A stretch of 64,000 nt of DNA. It comes from Sulfurimonadaceae bacterium (GTDB lineage: Bacteria > Campylobacterota > Campylobacteria > Campylobacterales > Sulfurimonadaceae). The stretch covers positions 17,496 through 81,495 of the forward strand of contig JBNLFL010000016.1 of NCBI GenBank assembly GCA_050305515.1. Direction: 5' to 3'. Below are positions 24,210 through 59,232 of the stretch, piece by piece. The position numbers and the translations under genes are program-made. How positions within the stretch are numbered: position 1 is the stretch's first letter; the number at the start of each line of letters is the position of its first letter. A model generated the notes under the pieces. It had not been told where the DNA came from. It was given only the letters and a program-made list of their open reading frames with translations, and made no database searches.

Positions 24210-27200
24210 CTAATTGCCATGACACTGGCGTTTTCCGGGATCAAGCCCGATATGTTGACCCGCAGGACAGGGTTTGCAGTTGTTTACAGGGTCCGGCAGT
24301 GTCGGTTTTGTATCGAGTGCCTTGCCTTTACTGACACTGATGTTGGTATAGAGCGGATACTGGATGATCTTCATTTTCTTTTTGTTTTCTGCATTACGCT
24401 GTGTGATGAGGTCGTTGATCGTTTTGACATCTACAGGGCCGACAATCGTGTAGGTGGTTGATGAGCAGTTCGCCGTACGCTGCAAATAGGTACTCTTCTC
24501 GGTAATGAGATAATATTTTCCGACAGAGGGTGCCGTCGCTCCTGTTGTTGTGCTTTGCGAGGCACGGCTACTTTGGGATGTCGTCACGCTGCTTGATACC
24601 GAAGATGATGACCATGATTGACTCGAACTCCATGATGTTTGATCGTTACTGTTGCCATGGGCACTGCTGCGCTGGTTGTGTGCGGTAAGCGTGGCGATAG
24701 TTTCGGCATTCGCTTCATTCATGTTGTCCTGACCGAAGTCATGACCCTCTTCACCCCATCCCGAAGCGTTGTCCTGATTCTGACGCTCGCCGACACCGCT
24801 TTGGCGGTCACTCTCGCGGCTGTCCCATCCGGAAGCATCAAACCCGCCCCCGCCACTTTCAGGAATACAGATTTTATCGAGTCCACAGACCTGACCGAGC
24901 GGGCAGTTATGGTCGGTTTTACATGTAATGATGGAATCCTTGATCTGTTGACAGATAGCAGCTATTTTTGAAGAGCACGCCACGGCTTCCTGTGCTTTCG
25001 TATCGGCATAGGGACCGAAGATCTCCGCCGTATCTGCGGCTGCCCGGAGTTCGTTGAGATCACCTCCGGCGTTTTGCTCCTTGCAGCCGGCAAGCGCGAT
25101 TTTCTGCTGCATCAGTGCCGCGATGGCACGCTCTATGGCACTGCGCTGTGTGTTGCACTCGGCAATCGCTTTTTGCACGCCGGCAGAGTGCGTAGCGGCT
25201 GTGGAGGCGCTGAGACGGATACTTTCACTAATAGGTGCTAGCGATTGTTTGGCACCGGCGATCATCTCCTGCGATGCTCCGGAACGATCAAGCTCTTTGT
25301 TGATGCGGGCTGTGAGTGTCGCAGCCGTGGCCTGAAGCGAACGTACTTTATCAGCGTGCTCTCTCGCACCGCTTTGCAGGAGTGCGAGGGATTCGGGCGA
25401 AAGCAGCGCCAGTGAGGAGCGGGCCGATTCAATAGCGGCATTGATGGCATTGGACCGATAAAGCGCTTCGCGAACAAGTTGGTCGAACGCGGCATTGTTA
25501 AAGCCGGAAACCAGATGGTCGTAGCGCCCTTTGATAACTCCGGCTATCAGAAGCGCCTTGTTCGCTTCCGATCGTGATGCCGCCGCCGCACTTTTTGCCT
25601 GAAGGGCCAATGCGTTGCAGGCTTCAAGCGCCATCGATTTGTCGGCTTGCGACACGTAATCGCACGTCTCTTTGGCAGAATCGGCGGCGAAGGCGTAATG
25701 AAGTTTGAGTTTTCCCATATCTGATACCGAAGCGGCGTTGGCCGCTGCAATCTCCTGAGGATCGACAACGCCGAACTGCTGCATTTTGGCGCACCCCTCA
25801 ACGAGCTCATCAATGCCTTCGCCCGCACTCACGATTTTCTCTTTTATGGCACTGTACTCGGAGAGATACTGCTGCGCCTGTTGTGAAGCGCGTTCCAGCG
25901 GGGGGAGTTCCGCTTTGATACTGCGCTCTATTCCCTTGAGTTCGGCAAAAAGGCCGCGTACATCCGCAAAAGGATCAAATTCGTTTTGTTCCAGACCGCT
26001 GCACTCCCTGACACGGGCTTCAAGCGTATCAAACGCTGCAAGATAGCGGTTATAGCGGCTGAGTTCCATTTGAACGGCATCGACAAGCTGTGCGGGATCG
26101 GAAGCGGGAGCCTGACACGATTCGAGTGCTTGCGAGATGTCGCTTACCATGCGTTCACGTTCGCTCATGCGTTCGCGGAATGCCGCAATGTTGGCGCTTT
26201 CGGCAGCCATGATCGTTTTGATGTTCTGATCGACTTCCCATGCAGGCTTTTTGTATGCACGCGCCTGCTCCATGAGAGACTCTCCGGCTTTGGCCGCATA
26301 TTTCTTGATAAGCGGATCGCTCAGCAGCGTGCGGATCTGCTGATAGGGGGCGTCGATATACTCCGTGTAGGCTTTGGTGATAAACTCCTGCCAGGTCTCA
26401 ATATTGTGCAGGATGGTTTTGCCTTCGTCAATGCTTTTCGATGTTCCCGCAAGCTGCTCTTTCAGACTTTTGAGTTTTTTTAGAGTGCTTTTGATGGCGG
26501 TCGCATGGGTGAGTGCTTCTTTGACGTGGTAGTCTATGTCGGCTTTATAGCTTTGGGCTTCGCGCTTGCTTTTATTGATATATGCAAGGGTTTGACTGAT
26601 TAGTTTTGAATCGGATTTGTTCTGGCATGCGTTCTGTGCTTTCTCCCGTGCACTCAGACCGCGATCACGAATTTTGTCCAGATAGGTGCCGAGCTGATCA
26701 TGGGCAGTCTCAAAGCTTTGTTGATGCTGCGCGATGTCGCCGCACTCGGTGTATAGCGCCGCAGCTTCATGCCTGAGGTTCTCAAGTGTCTGTGCAGTGG
26801 CGTCGGAGCGGGAGTTGAATTCGGTGATTTTTTTGATCTGTTTTTCAAGTTTGCTATCAATACTGTAGAGCTGATCGGAGTTTTTCTCCAGCGTTTTCAT
26901 TGCGCTTTGCACCTGTGCGAAGATGCCTACCATTTTCTTGATCTGTTCATTATTCTGGGCATATTTCGCGGCGACGCTCATAAAGTACTGAAACATGCGG
27001 TCATGTTCCGCATCAAGAGCCGCCTTGAGCGGTTGAAGGCTTTGAACTGTTACCTGGTTTTGGCGTGCCTTGAATGCGGCATACTCATATTTTTCCAGAT
27101 AACCCAGCTCGGCGAACTCACGAACATTCTGCTGCTCCTTGATACCGAAGCTTCTGATCTCCGCCATGGGGTAACGGCCGTCAAGACTGAAGGTCTTCAT

Positions 27201-27875
27201 GTAGGCCTGTTCCGGAGTATATCCGGCCTGCCTGAGGTCATTGTAGTATTCGAGCATCTCACCCGAGAAGTAGCGTTTCATCCCTTTTTCGGCGAAATCA
27301 AGAAACTCGATTTCGAGTTCGACAAGCTGGATGAAGAGTCCCCCCGGACTGCCGCCGGTGCTATCTTTGAGAACCCAGTCAATGCCGCCGGTGATGAGGT
27401 CTTTCGAAAGCGCGGTCATCTTTTCGGTTCCGGTGGCTTTAAGCCGTGCTTTGAGGACGCTCGAAGCATCGGCATAGTTCCCCAGCCACACCTGCTGATA
27501 GACGGCTTTGGCATCATCGCGCGTGAGGGGAACGTAGTTTAAAATCTGCGCCGCGGGACTGTCATCGTCGATGATTTCGGCAATATGAGAGTCCACATAA
27601 GTGACGAAGTAGTCGCTGGCACTCTGTCCGGCCATCTGGAAGGCACCTTCGTAGTCGCCTCCGGCCATGCTGCCCAGAAAGTCACCGACTTTTGCCGGAT
27701 CAACGCTGCTGAGCCCTTTGGCAAGTTTGGGGTGATCTTCCTTGAGTTCTGCAATAAGGTCATTTTTAATCTGTACCATGGCCTCCTGCATCAGTTCATC
27801 ATCGCTGGGAGTATCGGCCAAACCTGTCGAGCATGTAAGCGAGAGAAACAGAAAAATGTGAATAAGAAAACGCAT
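24210..27875 (-). CDS. Large secreted alpha-helical/coiled-coil protein (1221 aa) with Ser-rich linker and Cys-containing C-terminal module
   Basis: Signal peptide MRFLIHIFLFLSLTCSTGLA. About 950 aa of helical, Ala/Glu/Lys/Gln-rich sequence follow. Then comes a CxxDHNCPLGQVCGLDKIC knot-like segment, a Ser-rich tract (SWSSSQSWSSSSVSSSVTTSQSSRASQSTTT) and a small C-terminal domain ending CKPCPAGQH...CHGN. Confidence 0.7.
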   Translation of the reverse strand: MRFLIHIFLFLSLTCSTGLADTPSDDELMQEAMVQIKNDLIAELKEDHPKLAKGLSSVDPAKVGDFLGSMAGGDYEGAFQMAGQSASDYFVTYVDSHIAEIIDDDSPAAQILNYVPLTRDDAKAVYQQVWLGNYADASSVLKARLKATGTEKMTALSKDLITGGIDWVLKDSTGGSPGGLFIQLVELEIEFLDFAEKGMKRYFSGEMLEYYNDLRQAGYTPEQAYMKTFSLDGRYPMAEIRSFGIKEQQNVREFAELGYLEKYEYAAFKARQNQVTVQSLQPLKAALDAEHDRMFQYFMSVAAKYAQNNEQIKKMVGIFAQVQSAMKTLEKNSDQLYSIDSKLEKQIKKITEFNSRSDATAQTLENLRHEAAALYTECGDIAQHQQSFETAHDQLGTYLDKIRDRGLSAREKAQNACQNKSDSKLISQTLAYINKSKREAQSYKADIDYHVKEALTHATAIKSTLKKLKSLKEQLAGTSKSIDEGKTILHNIETWQEFITKAYTEYIDAPYQQIRTLLSDPLIKKYAAKAGESLMEQARAYKKPAWEVDQNIKTIMAAESANIAAFRERMSERERMVSDISQALESCQAPASDPAQLVDAVQMELSRYNRYLAAFDTLEARVRECSGLEQNEFDPFADVRGLFAELKGIERSIKAELPPLERASQQAQQYLSEYSAIKEKIVSAGEGIDELVEGCAKMQQFGVVDPQEIAAANAASVSDMGKLKLHYAFAADSAKETCDYVSQADKSMALEACNALALQAKSAAAASRSEANKALLIAGVIKGRYDHLVSGFNNAAFDQLVREALYRSNAINAAIESARSSLALLSPESLALLQSGAREHADKVRSLQATAATLTARINKELDRSGASQEMIAGAKQSLAPISESIRLSASTAATHSAGVQKAIAECNTQRSAIERAIAALMQQKIALAGCKEQNAGGDLNELRAAADTAEIFGPYADTKAQEAVACSSKIAAICQQIKDSIITCKTDHNCPLGQVCGLDKICIPESGGGGFDASGWDSRESDRQSGVGERQNQDNASGWGEEGHDFGQDNMNEANAETIATLTAHNQRSSAHGNSNDQTSWSSSQSWSSSSVSSSVTTSQSSRASQSTTTGATAPSVGKYYLITEKSTYLQRTANCSSTTYTIVGPVDVKTINDLITQRNAENKKKMKIIQYPLYTNISVSKGKALDTKPTLPDPVNNCKPCPAGQHIGLDPGKRQCHGN

Positions 27876-27887
27876 GGTCTCCTCCTT

Positions 27888-30800
27888 TTACTGCCGCTGC
27901 AGCTCTATGCTGATGGTGATGGTGTCATCCAGAGTGCTGCAGGTTTTTGTTTTCGGGTAGCTGCCTTTGAGGGTGTTGCCGCTGATCTTGCCGTTCCAGA
28001 TGCCGAGTCCGGGGATGGTGAATGTGTTTTTATCGGGGTAGACATAGGCGTAGTCGGAACTGTTGTAGGCGTCGAGATGGATGCGGCGCTGTCCGCAGTA
28101 GTGGCGGAAACCGTATGTGACGGTAGCATTGTATTTGAATTTTTGCAGGCTTTCAGGACCGACATAGTGGTCTTCGACGTTGATGGTAATGGGGAACTTC
28201 TCTGTGCCGCTCTCTACTGTTGTGACGGTCGCCGTTCCTTTAAATCGTGCCGGAAGCGCCATACCGGAGCTTGCTGCGCTGGTCTGTGTCACGCTACCTT
28301 TGGACTGCCAGGTTCCCTTGACATCATCATCAGTCCAGGTACCGCTGCCGCTGAGGTTACCTTTGGCATCTTTTTTGATGGTGCCTTTCCAGCTGAAAGT
28401 TCCACTGCTGCCACCGGCCTGTTTGAGGTCTATCTTACCGGTGTTGCTGATGTTTCCGGTGAAGGAACCGTAGTCATCTCCTTCGTAACGCACCGTCACC
28501 TTGCCATCTTTGGCAATCGTCATAGTAAAAGTGCCTGAAGCGAGTTTGATAATCCCGCCTGAGCCTTTCCAGCTTCCGGTCATGGTACCGCTGAAGGCAG
28601 TAGAACCCGAAGTGGTCGTTGTACCAGTGGTAATGGAGGTTCCTGAGAGTGTGTCCGTAGAGCCTACCGTTCCCGTGGCAGTCGTACCCGTTGTCGTGCT
28701 GCTGCCGCAATCGGCAACGACATCGGTCATACCGCGGTAATTGGAACCGGAATTGTTGGCCCAGGTCGAATTTTCCGAGTCGACAATCGTATAGGTTCCT
28801 GCCGGCAGGGAGATGTTGGGTGACGCCGTCCAGTAAGCGTTGGGAACGCCGCCCTGTCCGGGTTTACCTATCGTTGACCACGGACCATACATTTTACCCG
28901 AACTATCACGAACTCCAATAGTGCCGGGCTTGCTTCCTTTGGCATTGTTCCAGTGGTAGTTGGTGATGGAGACAAGTTTACATGTAGACTTGATGGTGAA
29001 CGTAGTGGGGTTTTTCGGATTGTTTTGTACGCCGGCAATGTTACCCGTATTTAAAATGGTCTGCGATCCAGTTGTGGTCGTAGTTCCTGACGATGTATCC
29101 GAAGAAGTTGATGCGGTACCCGATGGCGTCGAAGATGTATGGGATGTTGGCGTATGCGTGTCATCATTTGAATGCGACGAATACTGCTTGCTGACAAGAA
29201 TCTCTTTTTGTTTGTTCATACCCGAGTTGACCTGTTGGGTCATCTGTTCGTATCCGAAACTGTTGGAGGGCTCTTCAGGGGTGTTGTAGCTGTCAAAAGA
29301 GTTGCGGTCCCCGACAACCTGGTCTCTGCCACTGTCACGACCTGTAAAACGGTCTGTCAAAGAGAGCCCGGCAGCGGTCATCGCGGCGTCATCTTTTTTC
29401 TTCTGGGCTTCGCGATTGGCTTTCTGCTCGGCTGCCGCTACGGCGTCGGCATTTTTTTTCTTTTCCTGCAGTCTCACTCGTAACGATGCGATCAGCTGTG
29501 ATATATTCGGGTCCGGCCACTGCTTGACACTCGCTTCGAAAGATTCAAGAGCACTGGCAAGATCACTTTTGTCAAGCGCTGCCCATCCTTTTTTGTTGTA
29601 GTCTCCGGCTCTTTGCTGGCGTTTTAGCAGATCATCGAGTTTTCGTTGCACACTGGAATCGTCTTGAATCTGGAGACTTTTTTTATATGAGGAAATAGCT
29701 TCACTGAATTTGGAGTGTTCATTGAACGTATCTCCTTGCCGCGCCTCACTCTCAGCTTGTGAGACACGCTCTGCTACCTGTGGACGATACCCTGTTATGC
29801 CTTCTGTATGTTCTTCCCATTTAGGAAAGTTGTCTATAAGGCTTAAGGCTTTTTTGGGATCTCTGTTCTCGAGAAGCGCGCCAATCTCTTTGAATGTGTC
29901 TGTCGCTTTTTCCTGCATTTCAAGACTACGTTCATTATATATTGTTGAAAGTTCGTTCCAGCGAGGGTCTTCTGAGACAGGAAGTTGCCGTTGCGTCATT
30001 CTTTGTCGTATGGAGTCCATAGTGCTCATAGCACTTTTGAGTTTTCCCTCTTTAATCTGGGATTTGATGTTTGGAATGTCTTCTTGCAGTACTTTGTTCC
30101 ATGGTTCTTTCCATCGTTTATACTCTTCAAGACGTTTGGCGTTGTTGACAGCTCTGGGACCACCCACCAGATCAGACAACTCAATTGCTTTGATACCTGC
30201 ATTGAAATCACTGTTTTTAAGGACTTTGGATTGACCAGCATTGATAAGACGCGCTGTTAAAATAGATTGCATCGCTTGTTTGTCTTTTTCCAGCATCATG
30301 TCAGCGATGCGTTTGTAAATTTCACCCGCTTCAATCCAGAGATCTTCCCAGCCGTCGCGTTGAGGAAATATCAGGGAGTTGATTTTTTGAATATCTTCTT
30401 CAATACACTTCGCGTTTTCTTTTTGGACGACGATTTTCAGTTTCTGATAGACCAGTTCATCATTTTTACGCATCTCATCAAAAATTTTGAGATTCTCTTC
30501 ATAATTTTTCTGGTCAACATAATTTCTGCATCCCAGGAGCGCTTTTTTTGAAAACGGCATGGGTGCATACCATGATGTCAAAGGACCGGTTGCCATACAA
30601 GGCCCACCCTGATTCGTACCGGCATAGTAACCGCCCAATGAACCACCGGAACTTTTACAAAGACAGTTATAAAGTTTGTCAAAGTCACTCTTTCTTGAAG
30701 TCTGATTTCCCGAAGAAACCTGAGCGCTCGAAGACGCAGGGTTGTTCAAAACGGAGTTTTCATAACCTTTGAAGGTGAACCGCTTGCTCTCTTCATCCGC

Positions 30801-31472
30801 ATACGCCTTACGCAGTCTGTTCAGTGTATTTGGTATTTCGTCCCTGTCTTTTTTCAAGGAATCCATAGAGACTTTATGATCGTTTTTCAGAGCATTCAAA
30901 ACCTTCATCAGTTTAGAGTTTTTCTCCAGTTCTTTTAATTTTTTAAGTACGAAGCTTTGACTGTTCTTTCCACCAGAATTCACTCCGTCTACGATGTTCC
31001 AGTCCAAATTGGTTTGAACCAGATCTTTTGAGAGGGAAAAGGGTGTCACTCCCGGAATCAAAAATTTAATTTGCTCTTCGGTGACTTGTATCTGAAGCTC
31101 ATTGATTATTTTTGACCGGCTCTTCAATGACTGGTTGGCAAGGTACGCGTACAGGTCATTCGCGTCAAGATACTCTTTGCGACACTGTTCATAGTTGTCG
31201 TCAAAGAGTTTTTTGATCGCATTGTCATTGTTGGCTTGGGGAAATGCAGAAGGTTGCCCATACTCTTTAAGTGTGCGTGCACATTTTTCTACAAGCCTGA
31301 TACGTTCATCCATGGGCATACCTGGATGCGTTAGCGCTTTTTCTAAGCCTTCTTTTGCTTCATTCACCCATTGTTGTTGCGATTGATTCAAGACACGTGC
31401 ATCTGCATTTGAATAAAAACTGACTAGCATGAGAAGAATAACGGAAAAGTATTTGAGAAGAGAGGGTGCCAT
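27888..31472 (-). CDS. Large secreted modular protein (~1194 aa): helical/TPR-like N-terminal two-thirds, Ser/Thr-rich linkers, three beta-rich C-terminal modules
   Basis: Start set at the ATG at 31472 (AAGGAG 6 nt upstream), giving signal peptide MAPSLLKYFSVILLMLVSFYSNADA. Ser/Thr tracts include HTSSTPSGTASTSSDTSSGTTTTTGS and SSTTTGTTATGTVGSTDTLSGTSITTGTTTTSGS. The gene lies 12 nt upstream of the next giant gene. Confidence 0.7.
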   Translation of the reverse strand: MAPSLLKYFSVILLMLVSFYSNADARVLNQSQQQWVNEAKEGLEKALTHPGMPMDERIRLVEKCARTLKEYGQPSAFPQANNDNAIKKLFDDNYEQCRKEYLDANDLYAYLANQSLKSRSKIINELQIQVTEEQIKFLIPGVTPFSLSKDLVQTNLDWNIVDGVNSGGKNSQSFVLKKLKELEKNSKLMKVLNALKNDHKVSMDSLKKDRDEIPNTLNRLRKAYADEESKRFTFKGYENSVLNNPASSSAQVSSGNQTSRKSDFDKLYNCLCKSSGGSLGGYYAGTNQGGPCMATGPLTSWYAPMPFSKKALLGCRNYVDQKNYEENLKIFDEMRKNDELVYQKLKIVVQKENAKCIEEDIQKINSLIFPQRDGWEDLWIEAGEIYKRIADMMLEKDKQAMQSILTARLINAGQSKVLKNSDFNAGIKAIELSDLVGGPRAVNNAKRLEEYKRWKEPWNKVLQEDIPNIKSQIKEGKLKSAMSTMDSIRQRMTQRQLPVSEDPRWNELSTIYNERSLEMQEKATDTFKEIGALLENRDPKKALSLIDNFPKWEEHTEGITGYRPQVAERVSQAESEARQGDTFNEHSKFSEAISSYKKSLQIQDDSSVQRKLDDLLKRQQRAGDYNKKGWAALDKSDLASALESFEASVKQWPDPNISQLIASLRVRLQEKKKNADAVAAAEQKANREAQKKKDDAAMTAAGLSLTDRFTGRDSGRDQVVGDRNSFDSYNTPEEPSNSFGYEQMTQQVNSGMNKQKEILVSKQYSSHSNDDTHTPTSHTSSTPSGTASTSSDTSSGTTTTTGSQTILNTGNIAGVQNNPKNPTTFTIKSTCKLVSITNYHWNNAKGSKPGTIGVRDSSGKMYGPWSTIGKPGQGGVPNAYWTASPNISLPAGTYTIVDSENSTWANNSGSNYRGMTDVVADCGSSTTTGTTATGTVGSTDTLSGTSITTGTTTTSGSTAFSGTMTGSWKGSGGIIKLASGTFTMTIAKDGKVTVRYEGDDYGSFTGNISNTGKIDLKQAGGSSGTFSWKGTIKKDAKGNLSGSGTWTDDDVKGTWQSKGSVTQTSAASSGMALPARFKGTATVTTVESGTEKFPITINVEDHYVGPESLQKFKYNATVTYGFRHYCGQRRIHLDAYNSSDYAYVYPDKNTFTIPGLGIWNGKISGNTLKGSYPKTKTCSTLDDTITISIELQRQ

Positions 31473-31495
31473 AACATGCTCCTTAGTCAAGGTAA

Positions 31496-31527
31496 GATCT
31501 GAATGCTTACATGTAAGCATTCAGATC
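31496..31527. promoter_or_regulatory. 32-bp perfect palindrome (potential 16-bp-stem hairpin or operator) between the csgG-like gene and the first giant gene
   Basis: GATCTGAATGCTTACATGTAAGCATTCAGATC equals its own reverse complement, checked base by base. It is centred on the TTACATGTAA motif and lies 24 nt upstream of the corrected start at 31472. Confidence 0.6.
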
Positions 31528-31557
31528 ATAGCTTGGGGAGCGGGAAGCTCCCGAAAG

Positions 31558-32307
31558 TTATTTCTTGTAGTACTGCTTCGGCGTTTTGACGATCAGCTGA
31601 TTGACCGCCTGGTCGATACAGGCGCGAATCGCTTTTTCCATCGGGGTGTTGGTGTATTTGCCCAAAGAGACGGGCAGGGCGCCTTCGCCTCTGCCGAGGG
31701 TGGTTCCCACATTGGCGTTATAGTCGGTGGTTTTGCCCTCAACCCGCGTGGCGAAGACGACGCGGCCCGATTTCATGTCGGTGGCGCGCATGTCGATGGC
31801 GACATGCGAGTTTTTGCTTCCGCCGCCCATGGAGAGCGGCAGCTGTCCCGAAAAGAGCGAAATCCCCATACCGCCGCTGTCGGCTTCAAATTCGGAGACG
31901 ACACCGTAGATGTAAAGCTCCGCTCCTTCAATGTGACCGCGTGAAGGTCCCGTACCCTCTTCGGCGCGGCGGCTGGCACTGAGGTCCTGTTCGAGCATCA
32001 TATCTTTCATGGCCTGACGGTCAAGGACAATAAAGTGGTTGGAGTCAAAGAGCGAGGTCATAAGCATTTCGCGCAGACCGTCACCGATTTCGCGCGTGGC
32101 ACCGGCGGCCTTGACCTGAAAGTCGCCCACTGCCACGTTGACTTTGGGACCGTTGTACTCCTGACGCTGCGCTTCATAGACGTCCATGCCCTGATTGTGC
32201 GTCGCCTGTGTCTGTGTGGGAACCTCAGGTCCCCCGCCGCCGCAGCCCGAGAGCAGCAGCATGGCTGCTGAGGCTGCGGCGATACCCAGTGATGTAATGC
32301 GTAACAT
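31558..32307 (-). CDS. CsgG-family lipoprotein (curli-type secretion-channel family)
   Basis: Lipobox LLLSGC. By eye it aligns to E. coli CsgG blocks: VNVAVGDFQVK...IGDGLREMLMTSLFDSNHFIVLDRQAMKDMMLEQDL versus IFVSVYNIQDE...ATAMLVTALKDSRWFIPLERQGLQNLLNERKI. A further block is AELYIYGVVSEFEADSGGMG...VAIDMRATDMKSGRVV. At 249 aa the size fits. Confidence 0.8.
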   Translation of the reverse strand: MLRITSLGIAAASAAMLLLSGCGGGGPEVPTQTQATHNQGMDVYEAQRQEYNGPKVNVAVGDFQVKAAGATREIGDGLREMLMTSLFDSNHFIVLDRQAMKDMMLEQDLSASRRAEEGTGPSRGHIEGAELYIYGVVSEFEADSGGMGISLFSGQLPLSMGGGSKNSHVAIDMRATDMKSGRVVFATRVEGKTTDYNANVGTTLGRGEGALPVSLGKYTNTPMEKAIRACIDQAVNQLIVKTPKQYYKK

Positions 32308-59163: not shown

Positions 59164-59232
59164 ACCTAACGTTTAAAATGAGCCGATGAATTGCCCGCAG
59201 GGTAATTCATCGGCTCCTCTGATTTGTTAGAT
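59164..59232 (-). repeat. attC-like structured repeat, copy 1 (69 bp)
   Basis: Minus strand reads ATCTAAC-AAATC-AGAGGAG-[CCGATGAATT ACCCTGCGGGC AATTCATCGG]-CTCATTT-TAAAC-GTTAGGT. This is the 7-5-7-variable stem-7-5-7 layout of integron attC sites. It starts 3 nt after the stop of the 59236..59535 ORF. Confidence 0.6.

Follow-up and report, generated by a model that had tools for sequence, protein, structure and literature searches.

Stabilising hairpins between cistrons are known from the puf operon of Rhodobacter and from the REP stem-loops of the E. coli malEFG operon, and sites in the early mRNA of phage T7 are known substrates of RNase III. Mutagenesis work in E. coli has described the correction of quasi-palindromes by template switching. 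Short words that are iterated through a genome can also be involved in hairpins, as in Neisseria and Pasteurellaceae, where inverted pairs of DNA uptake sequences frequently make up terminator hairpins. HIP1 (GCGATCGC) is a highly iterated palindrome of cyanobacteria (PMC4390886, PMC5861425). Intercistronic mRNA stem-loops give the segments of an operon transcript different stabilities (see PMC11354728). In the yabJ-spoVG cis-interaction reported from S. aureus, an RNase III substrate is located inside a polycistronic mRNA (bioRxiv 10.64898/2026.09.18.752551).

The hairpin described here is an ordinary kind of intra-operon control element and belongs to this well-known class of intercistronic stem-loops. 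It is located in a 3.31-Mb Sulfuricurvum genome (referred to as W in locus comparisons), within a 64-kb stretch of DNA that was analysed as a whole and is called the window (Table 1). The first-pass annotation of the window had reported a 32-bp perfect palindrome with 16-bp arms and no loop at this place, and direct reading of the sequence confirms it. The 85-nt gap between the two flanking genes was also given correctly; it extends from the TAA stop codon of the CsgG-like gene (31558-31560) to the ATG of the 1194-aa gene (31470-31472) and is unusually long for this operon, the other junctions of which measure 12-15 nt. Most of the gap is occupied by the palindrome and its hairpin.

All genes at the locus are on the minus strand. 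A 277-aa gene and the CsgG-like gene would form the short upstream message of the operon. An in-frame ATG of the 1194-aa gene at 31520 falls inside the palindrome; the start at 31472 is the likely one, since AAGGAG is found 6 nt upstream of it and the resulting protein has a signal-peptide-like N-terminus. The two giant proteins encoded 3' of the hairpin (27888-31472 and 24210-27875) are both very fast-evolving, and neither has a Pfam domain above threshold. Between the 1194-aa protein and its ortholog in the related genome G003 the identity is 45%, from residue 260 onward only, with an unalignable N-terminus, and the adjoining CsgG-like protein is 92% identical in the same comparison.

Table 1. 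Features of the junction between the CsgG-like gene and the 1194-aa gene (window coordinates)
Feature	Position	Strand	Basis or remark
CsgG-family lipoprotein gene, 249 aa, upstream cistron	31558..32307	-	Pfam PF03783, E 8e-33
Hairpin H1, GGGAGC-UUCCC-GCUCCC	31536..31552	-	Fold; 5 nt after the CsgG-like stop, abuts H2
Hairpin H2, 48 nt, 20 bp, two 1x1 mismatches (C·C, U·U), CAUG tetraloop	31488..31535	-	Fold
Perfect palindrome, 16-bp arms, no spacer	31496..31527	.	GATCTGAATGCTTACATGTAAGCATTCAGATC, read directly
Core TTACATGTAA at the H2 apex	31507..31516	.	One of 1182 genome copies of a lineage-specific iterated palindrome
Shine-Dalgarno (SD) sequence AAGGAG of the 1194-aa gene	31479..31484	-	3 nt past the H2 base, 6 nt before the ATG
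Gene of the 1194-aa secreted, fast-evolving protein	27888..31472	-	ORF; SD and signal-peptide-like N-terminus

The palindrome occurs once in the window, with zero occurrences expected from shuffled sequences, and its arm sequences have no second occurrence anywhere in the genome. A repeat search extending it gave a near-palindrome of 48 nt with 24-position arms and 2 mismatches. Among perfect palindromes of any kind in the genome it is the longest. The palindromes ranked second and third, with arms of 15 and 14 bp (C9:27069 and C15:32379), are paired adjacent copies of the core motif, CATTACATGTAACCGCGGTTACATGTAATG and GTTACATGTAAGGATCCTTACATGTAAC. For all 1182 copies of TTACATGTAA in the genome, the numbers with arms of 5 to 11 bp are 857, 217, 71, 24, 8, 3 and 1, followed by a single copy with 16-bp arms, which is the site studied here. 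Given the decay of ~0.33 per extra pair, ~0.006 sites with arms of this length are expected. The site had been described as the longest extension of an abundant motif within the window, and this holds for the whole genome (16-bp arms against 11 for the next longest, n=1182); its fold also surpasses all others centred on the 1182 motif copies in stability. The existence of the palindrome is thereby confirmed, it is exceptional by these statistics, and its biological meaning is that of a conserved mRNA hairpin between cistrons.

Read on the mRNA strand, the junction folds into two adjacent hairpins. The second of them, H2, has a free energy of -23.2 kcal/mol and a z-score of -8.0, and none of 200 shuffled sequences is equally stable. 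Its double-stranded part comprises 20 pairs over 22 positions, against an RNase III length criterion of ~20 bp or more; the genome encodes RNase III, with a score above the family cut-off, as well as RNase J. No U-tract follows H1 or H2 on the minus strand of this genome, so that neither hairpin qualifies as an intrinsic terminator and termination at H1 is doubtful here. A search of Rfam with the csgG-like junction matched only miRNA-precursor models, at 18-25 bits compared with gathering scores of 56-100. A covariance model of H2, with 150 of ~2900 candidates per genome scored in 31 genomes, gave this site as the only real match. One further weak match of the model, C34:29983, was rejected as a motif copy at a gene end that has no real stem.

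Orthologous junctions were collected from contigs that share the gene order and were found via CsgG-like homologs, together with one Sulfuricurvum metagenome-assembled genome (MAG), which gave 11 junctions; locus L016 was left out since its downstream genes are different. The CsgG-like proteins of the homologs with junctions read are 68-92% identical, and a Sulfuricurvum MAG is the only close relative among the species-representative genomes. A metagenome search with the CsgG-like protein and an exact-protein look-up gave no match, and a metagenome pattern scan with GATCTGANNNCTTACATGTAA found nine unrelated loci, none of which has the hairpin.

At every orthologous junction the gap measures ~80-170 nt, and two adjacent hairpins separated by only 0-3 nt are folded in all of them. 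H1 lies a few nucleotides past the stop codon in all orthologs and has a lineage-variable stem: GGGAGC/GCUCCC in this genome, and GGGGCG/CGCCCC, GGGAA/UUCCC, GCUGAGAG/CUCUUUAGC, GGGG/CCCC and others elsewhere. A- and U-runs on its flanks make it resemble an intrinsic terminator in L008-L015. H2 is found at the same place in W, L003, L005, L006, L008, L009/10, L011/12, L013 and L014, and in a short form in L007. Its stems have 13-20 pairs and end 3-14 nt ahead of the SD sequence, and each version has a z-score of -3.9 to -8.5 against dinucleotide shuffles, with 0 of 200 shuffles as stable. The core motif TTACATGTAA is located at the H2 apex in eight of the 11 junctions (W, L005, L006, L007 with short arms, L008, L009/10, L011/12 and L013). 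The apex of L014, from a genome with 913 motif copies, is the one-mismatch variant TTACATGTGA; in G003 the hairpin is kept at the csgG junction with a different apex and no motif, and in L015 the motif is lost. The first-pass annotation had counted absence of the palindrome from orthologous loci against its reading. There the hairpin is kept, at 11 junctions, and the perfect 32-bp palindrome is confined to this genome. The palindrome is this bacterium's unusually perfect version of a stem-loop that is kept in related sulfur bacteria.

The arms of H2 differ completely between lineages, and their complementarity is retained. In an unguided MAFFT alignment of eight sequences, RNAalifold predicted 15 pairs, seven of which show compensatory double changes; the orthologs are phylogenetically related, so that counts of compensatory cells overstate the number of independent events. 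Paired cells amount to 92%, compared with 31-45% when the partners are slid by 1-3 columns, and the covariation score of 0.436 (0.19 in shuffles) was reached by none of 500 shuffled alignments. Judging from these comparisons, selection is on the pairing of H2 and not on the sequence of its arms.

The strand on which this pairing is selected is indicated by G·U pairs. Over ten H2 loci, with segments delimited by eye for this count as for the shuffle z-scores, 22 G·U pairs are found in the mRNA-sense folds and 3 in the antisense folds, and the sense strand is the more stable one at eight of the ten loci, by up to 11 kcal/mol; the stems of W and L005 are almost purely Watson-Crick and are uninformative on strand. 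Same-strand gaps genome-wide have no such bias towards sense G·U pairs (245 versus 307). The change that degraded the apex motif of L014 retains a U·G pair on the sense strand. From these patterns we conclude that H2 appears to be selected as an RNA structure in the sense transcript, rather than as a cruciform or operator, since the G·U pairs lie on the mRNA strand and the arms are complementary without being conserved. The proposal that the palindrome forms a hairpin as RNA is therefore supported by both the compensatory changes at orthologous junctions and the G·U pairs of the mRNA strand. The sense-strand G·U pattern and the co-directional genes imply a transcript that would span the element, and, given the mere 0-3 nt that separate H1 from H2, the sense transcript must read through H1.

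The origin of the perfect arms can be followed by comparison with L005 and L006, whose arms are homologous to those of W and whose inner stems are both imperfect. Between W and L005 there are 3 differences among the 19 positions of the left arm and 7 among the 19 of the right arm. Of the latter, four are in the six innermost positions, and the W bases at these four sites are all now complementary to the left arm. By this comparison, the perfect 16-bp arms are a derived state. They probably arose by template switching at a quasi-palindrome, with one arm corrected against the other, or by selection for a tighter stem. The arm pattern of W is a signature of either of these two processes. The likeness to quasi-palindrome correction consists in clustered changes of one arm that turn an imperfect inverted repeat into a perfect one; the comparison is drawn from three sequences, and selection for a tighter stem would look alike.

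On balance, we consider it somewhat probable that the palindrome is the counterpart in DNA of a stem-loop, H2, located between cistrons in the polycistronic mRNA of the CsgG-like operon, and that this stem-loop has a role in splitting the fates of the transcript. H1 and H2 would divide the operon transcript into segments with different fates. H1, which is terminator-like in most relatives, would end the message of the 277-aa and CsgG-like genes or protect its 3' end, as a leaky terminator or a 3' protector. H2, a 20-bp helix beside the SD sequence, would serve as a 5' cap protecting the downstream segment against RNase J or, alternatively, as an RNase III cleavage site. With either role of H2, expression of the giant genes would differ in level from that of the channel gene. 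Such a partition fits the biology of the locus, since the CsgG-like protein is 70-92% conserved and the giant protein has 45% identity from residue 260 on. A copy of TTACATGTAA would have settled in the apex of H2, where any sequence may be tolerated and where a palindrome would even lengthen the stem. We infer the function, be it that of a decay barrier, an RNase III site or a coupling device, from the sequence only.

The same palindrome could act at the DNA level, as a dimer site composed of TTACATGTAA and its flanks or as a cruciform, with an effect on a promoter of the giant genes or on recombination where the conserved channel gene borders the hypervariable giant gene. Several observations would suit such an element: the 10-mer is perfect in eight of the 11 junctions while its surroundings change, the centre is AT-rich, one arm contains a -10-like TATGAT by eye, and the downstream gene, in contrast to the CsgG-like gene with its 70-92% conservation, is hypervariable right from the first codon. 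This -10-like sequence (31525-31530, minus strand, in the 5' arm) may belong to an internal promoter; no promoter was called at the palindrome site. However, it is the complementarity of the arms that is conserved and not their sequence, each sense G·U pair is an A·C mismatch on the other strand that would destabilise any DNA cruciform, the motif is absent in G003 and L015, and 1182 copies, ~70% of them intragenic, are too many for a specific operator. We hold a DNA-level role to be highly improbable, and the cruciform and dimer-operator options raised at first pass are disfavoured by the unconserved half-sites and by the A·C mismatches that weaken a cruciform. The operator of a dimeric transcription factor was also considered as a candidate and rejected, given the complete difference of the arms between lineages and the lack of a called promoter. 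It is very unlikely, too, that the long perfect arms are a neutral by-product, namely a recent template-switch accident nucleated at the 10-mer and having no function of its own. Consistent with an accident are the restriction of the perfect state to this genome, the concentration of the changes in one arm, and the quite different junctions of L007 and G003, the closest relatives by CsgG identity. Against it, a long hairpin has been kept at the exact position through many compensatory changes in distant relatives; because of this, the stem at least would be selected, and only its extra perfection could be neutral.

Two further explanations accept the RNA hairpins and differ in what they do. 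A translational clamp, in which H2 brings the region past the CsgG-like stop next to the downstream SD sequence, is an unlikely explanation. Either a CCUCC-like anti-SD in or beside H1 would pair with the SD sequence across the H2 base and be released by ribosomes terminating on the CsgG-like gene, or the terminating ribosomes would re-initiate across the folded 85-nt gap; in both versions, synthesis of the giant protein would be coupled to translation of the channel gene. CCUCC or CUCCC is present in H1 of most orthologs (in the loop of L009-L013, GUCCUCCUU; CCUCC in L005 and L006; CUCCC in W, L008 and L014), the minimum-energy folds of W, L006 and L003 pair an upstream pyrimidine stretch with the SD region so as to enclose H2, and H2 is 3-14 nt from the SD sequence at every locus. 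Yet duplexes of the upstream stretch with the SD region have no clear advantage over those formed by shuffled upstream stretches (z from -0.1 to -2.7, fraction as good 0.02-0.82), and the minimum-energy fold of L009-L013 leaves H1 closed and the SD sequence free. A composite attenuator or terminator, in which H1 and H2 halt RNA polymerase or make it pause and let only a fraction of the transcripts extend into the giant genes, would affect transcription and not decay, and we find it distinctly unlikely. The resemblance of H1 to a classical intrinsic terminator in L008-L015, the short motif-centred hairpin of L007 followed by UUUUUU, and a gap far longer than the other operon junctions all point in this direction, but W, L005 and L006 have no U-tract after either hairpin, and H2, which is downstream of H1, appears to be under selection as sense-strand RNA, so that transcripts must pass H1 frequently enough for H2 to be of consequence.

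The preferred reading, an intercistronic stem-loop separating transcript fates, can be compared with the described systems. The junction shares with the puf and REP-type stem-loops a stable hairpin within a gap of unusual length, flanked by co-directional genes that probably have to supply unequal amounts of product, and a structure that is conserved when its sequence is not. In contrast to them, it contains a tandem pair of hairpins, the second of which adjoins the SD sequence of the downstream gene instead of being confined to the 3' end of the upstream cistron; unlike REP, its arms are not a repeated genomic element. With RNase III substrates, H2 has in common a near-perfect dsRNA helix of about two turns in an intercistronic position, in a genome with an RNase III gene, although it is a predicted site and some orthologous stems, with 13-16 pairs including G·U, may be short for the enzyme. 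The likeness to DNA uptake sequences consists in a genome-wide short word at gene-junction hairpins and in lineage-specific 'dialects'; the difference is that a single palindromic copy is found here at the apex, with arms of unrelated sequence.

The apex 10-mer TTACATGTAA is itself an iterated element. It has 24 copies in the window (sites 1366 to 62974) compared with 0.01 expected, and its 1182 copies in the genome (0.36 per kb) make it the commonest 10-mer; the next palindromic 10-mer has 45. ACATGT hexamers are located within TACATGTA in 1449 of 1823 cases. About 70% of the motif copies are within ORFs and 29% are intergenic, the latter in every gene orientation. Their flanks are random beyond ±2 nt, and only a core of 10-14 nt recurs. 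The motif is abundant (355-1182 copies) in seven of 31 related genomes, comprising all five of the genus and two from other genera of the same family, and nearly absent (0-6 copies) from the other 24. Its positions are conserved within the genus at 72-79% DNA identity and carry no motif in motif-poor relatives. In these respects, TTACATGTAA seems to behave like a HIP1-type iterated palindrome: both are short perfect palindromes that are specific to a lineage, conserved in position and hyper-abundant inside as well as outside coding DNA. They differ in sequence and in phylum (Campylobacterota here), and the likeness concerns the apex only and not the hairpin. Our search of the literature on the motif and on Sulfuricurvum palindromes, and of the text of the HIP survey paper, returned no relevant report.

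Two explanations of the repeated copies were discarded. A MITE- or REP-type element was rejected on account of the unique arms and the random flanks of the 1182 copies, and the idea that all motif copies lie in hairpins was rejected on account of a stem-length distribution that equals the shuffled-partner control except for 3 outliers. A hairpin of 16 pairs with the motif at its tip was observed at C20:99575, inside the coding sequence of an 857-aa ORF. Separately from the motif, a hairpin family with the consensus GAGCCrATrAATTrCCC-TGC-GGGyAATTyATyGGCTC recurs in gaps between genes of the same strand, with copies on five or more contigs (window 59166-59230, C27:42114, C31:18491, C20:96198 and C13:54661). 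The genome also has an orphan D12-class (DPPY) adenine methyltransferase of 328 aa (C10:72939-73925), located beside a RecO-like gene and with no adjacent nuclease gene. Homologs of this methylase are found in all motif-rich genomes and also in the motif-poor G007 (43% identity); its correlation with the motif is not clean, and no cognate methyltransferase for TTACATGTAA was identified.

The second outlier in the stem-length distribution of the motif is the junction between rpsG and fusA (C15:75443-75575; L031 about 1966-2098), with a gap of 127 nt. Its layout is that of the csgG junction: H1, here with a U-run, is followed by H2, a 15-bp stem with the motif at its tip, and then by the SD sequence. 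This two-hairpin module is conserved in G001-G004 and G006. The motif-poor G011 has the same H2 base at this junction (GACCTCTTT/AAAGAGGTC) without the motif; the base GACCUCUUU/AAAGAGGUC is common to it and to the motif-rich genomes, where the motif is at the tip. The rpsG-fusA hairpin therefore predates the motif. In several other genera these genes are separated by two-hairpin junctions of a different kind, and in four genera by gaps of only 9-12 nt; Rfam gave nothing above threshold for the rpsG-fusA junction. As G011 and G003 keep H2 without the motif, and motif copies are generally not in hairpins, the apex 10-mer is probably a passenger. Its retention in eight of 11 apices could also mean that the motif itself matters. 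The occurrence of UUACAUGUAA at the stem tip in at least two unrelated operons (CsgG-like/giant and rpsG/fusA) might reflect a recognition loop or a preference of the motif for landing at stem tips, a proposal that we consider unlikely. A recognition loop may be read by an RNA-binding protein or nuclease, and preferred landing sites may be produced by the process that spreads the palindrome through the genome. If true, either would be the first lead to the function or mechanism of a HIP-like element from outside the cyanobacteria.

This work adds a two-hairpin module supported by covariation to the operons of Sulfurimonadaceae, whose RNA biology is almost unrecorded. This module is placed at the boundary between the gene of a conserved CsgG-family channel and those of giant secreted proteins that evolve fast, a setting in which unequal expression is plausible. 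The work further presents a case in which a palindrome iterated through the genome would meet RNA structure by settling in the tips of hairpins, which may help to interpret such motifs elsewhere.
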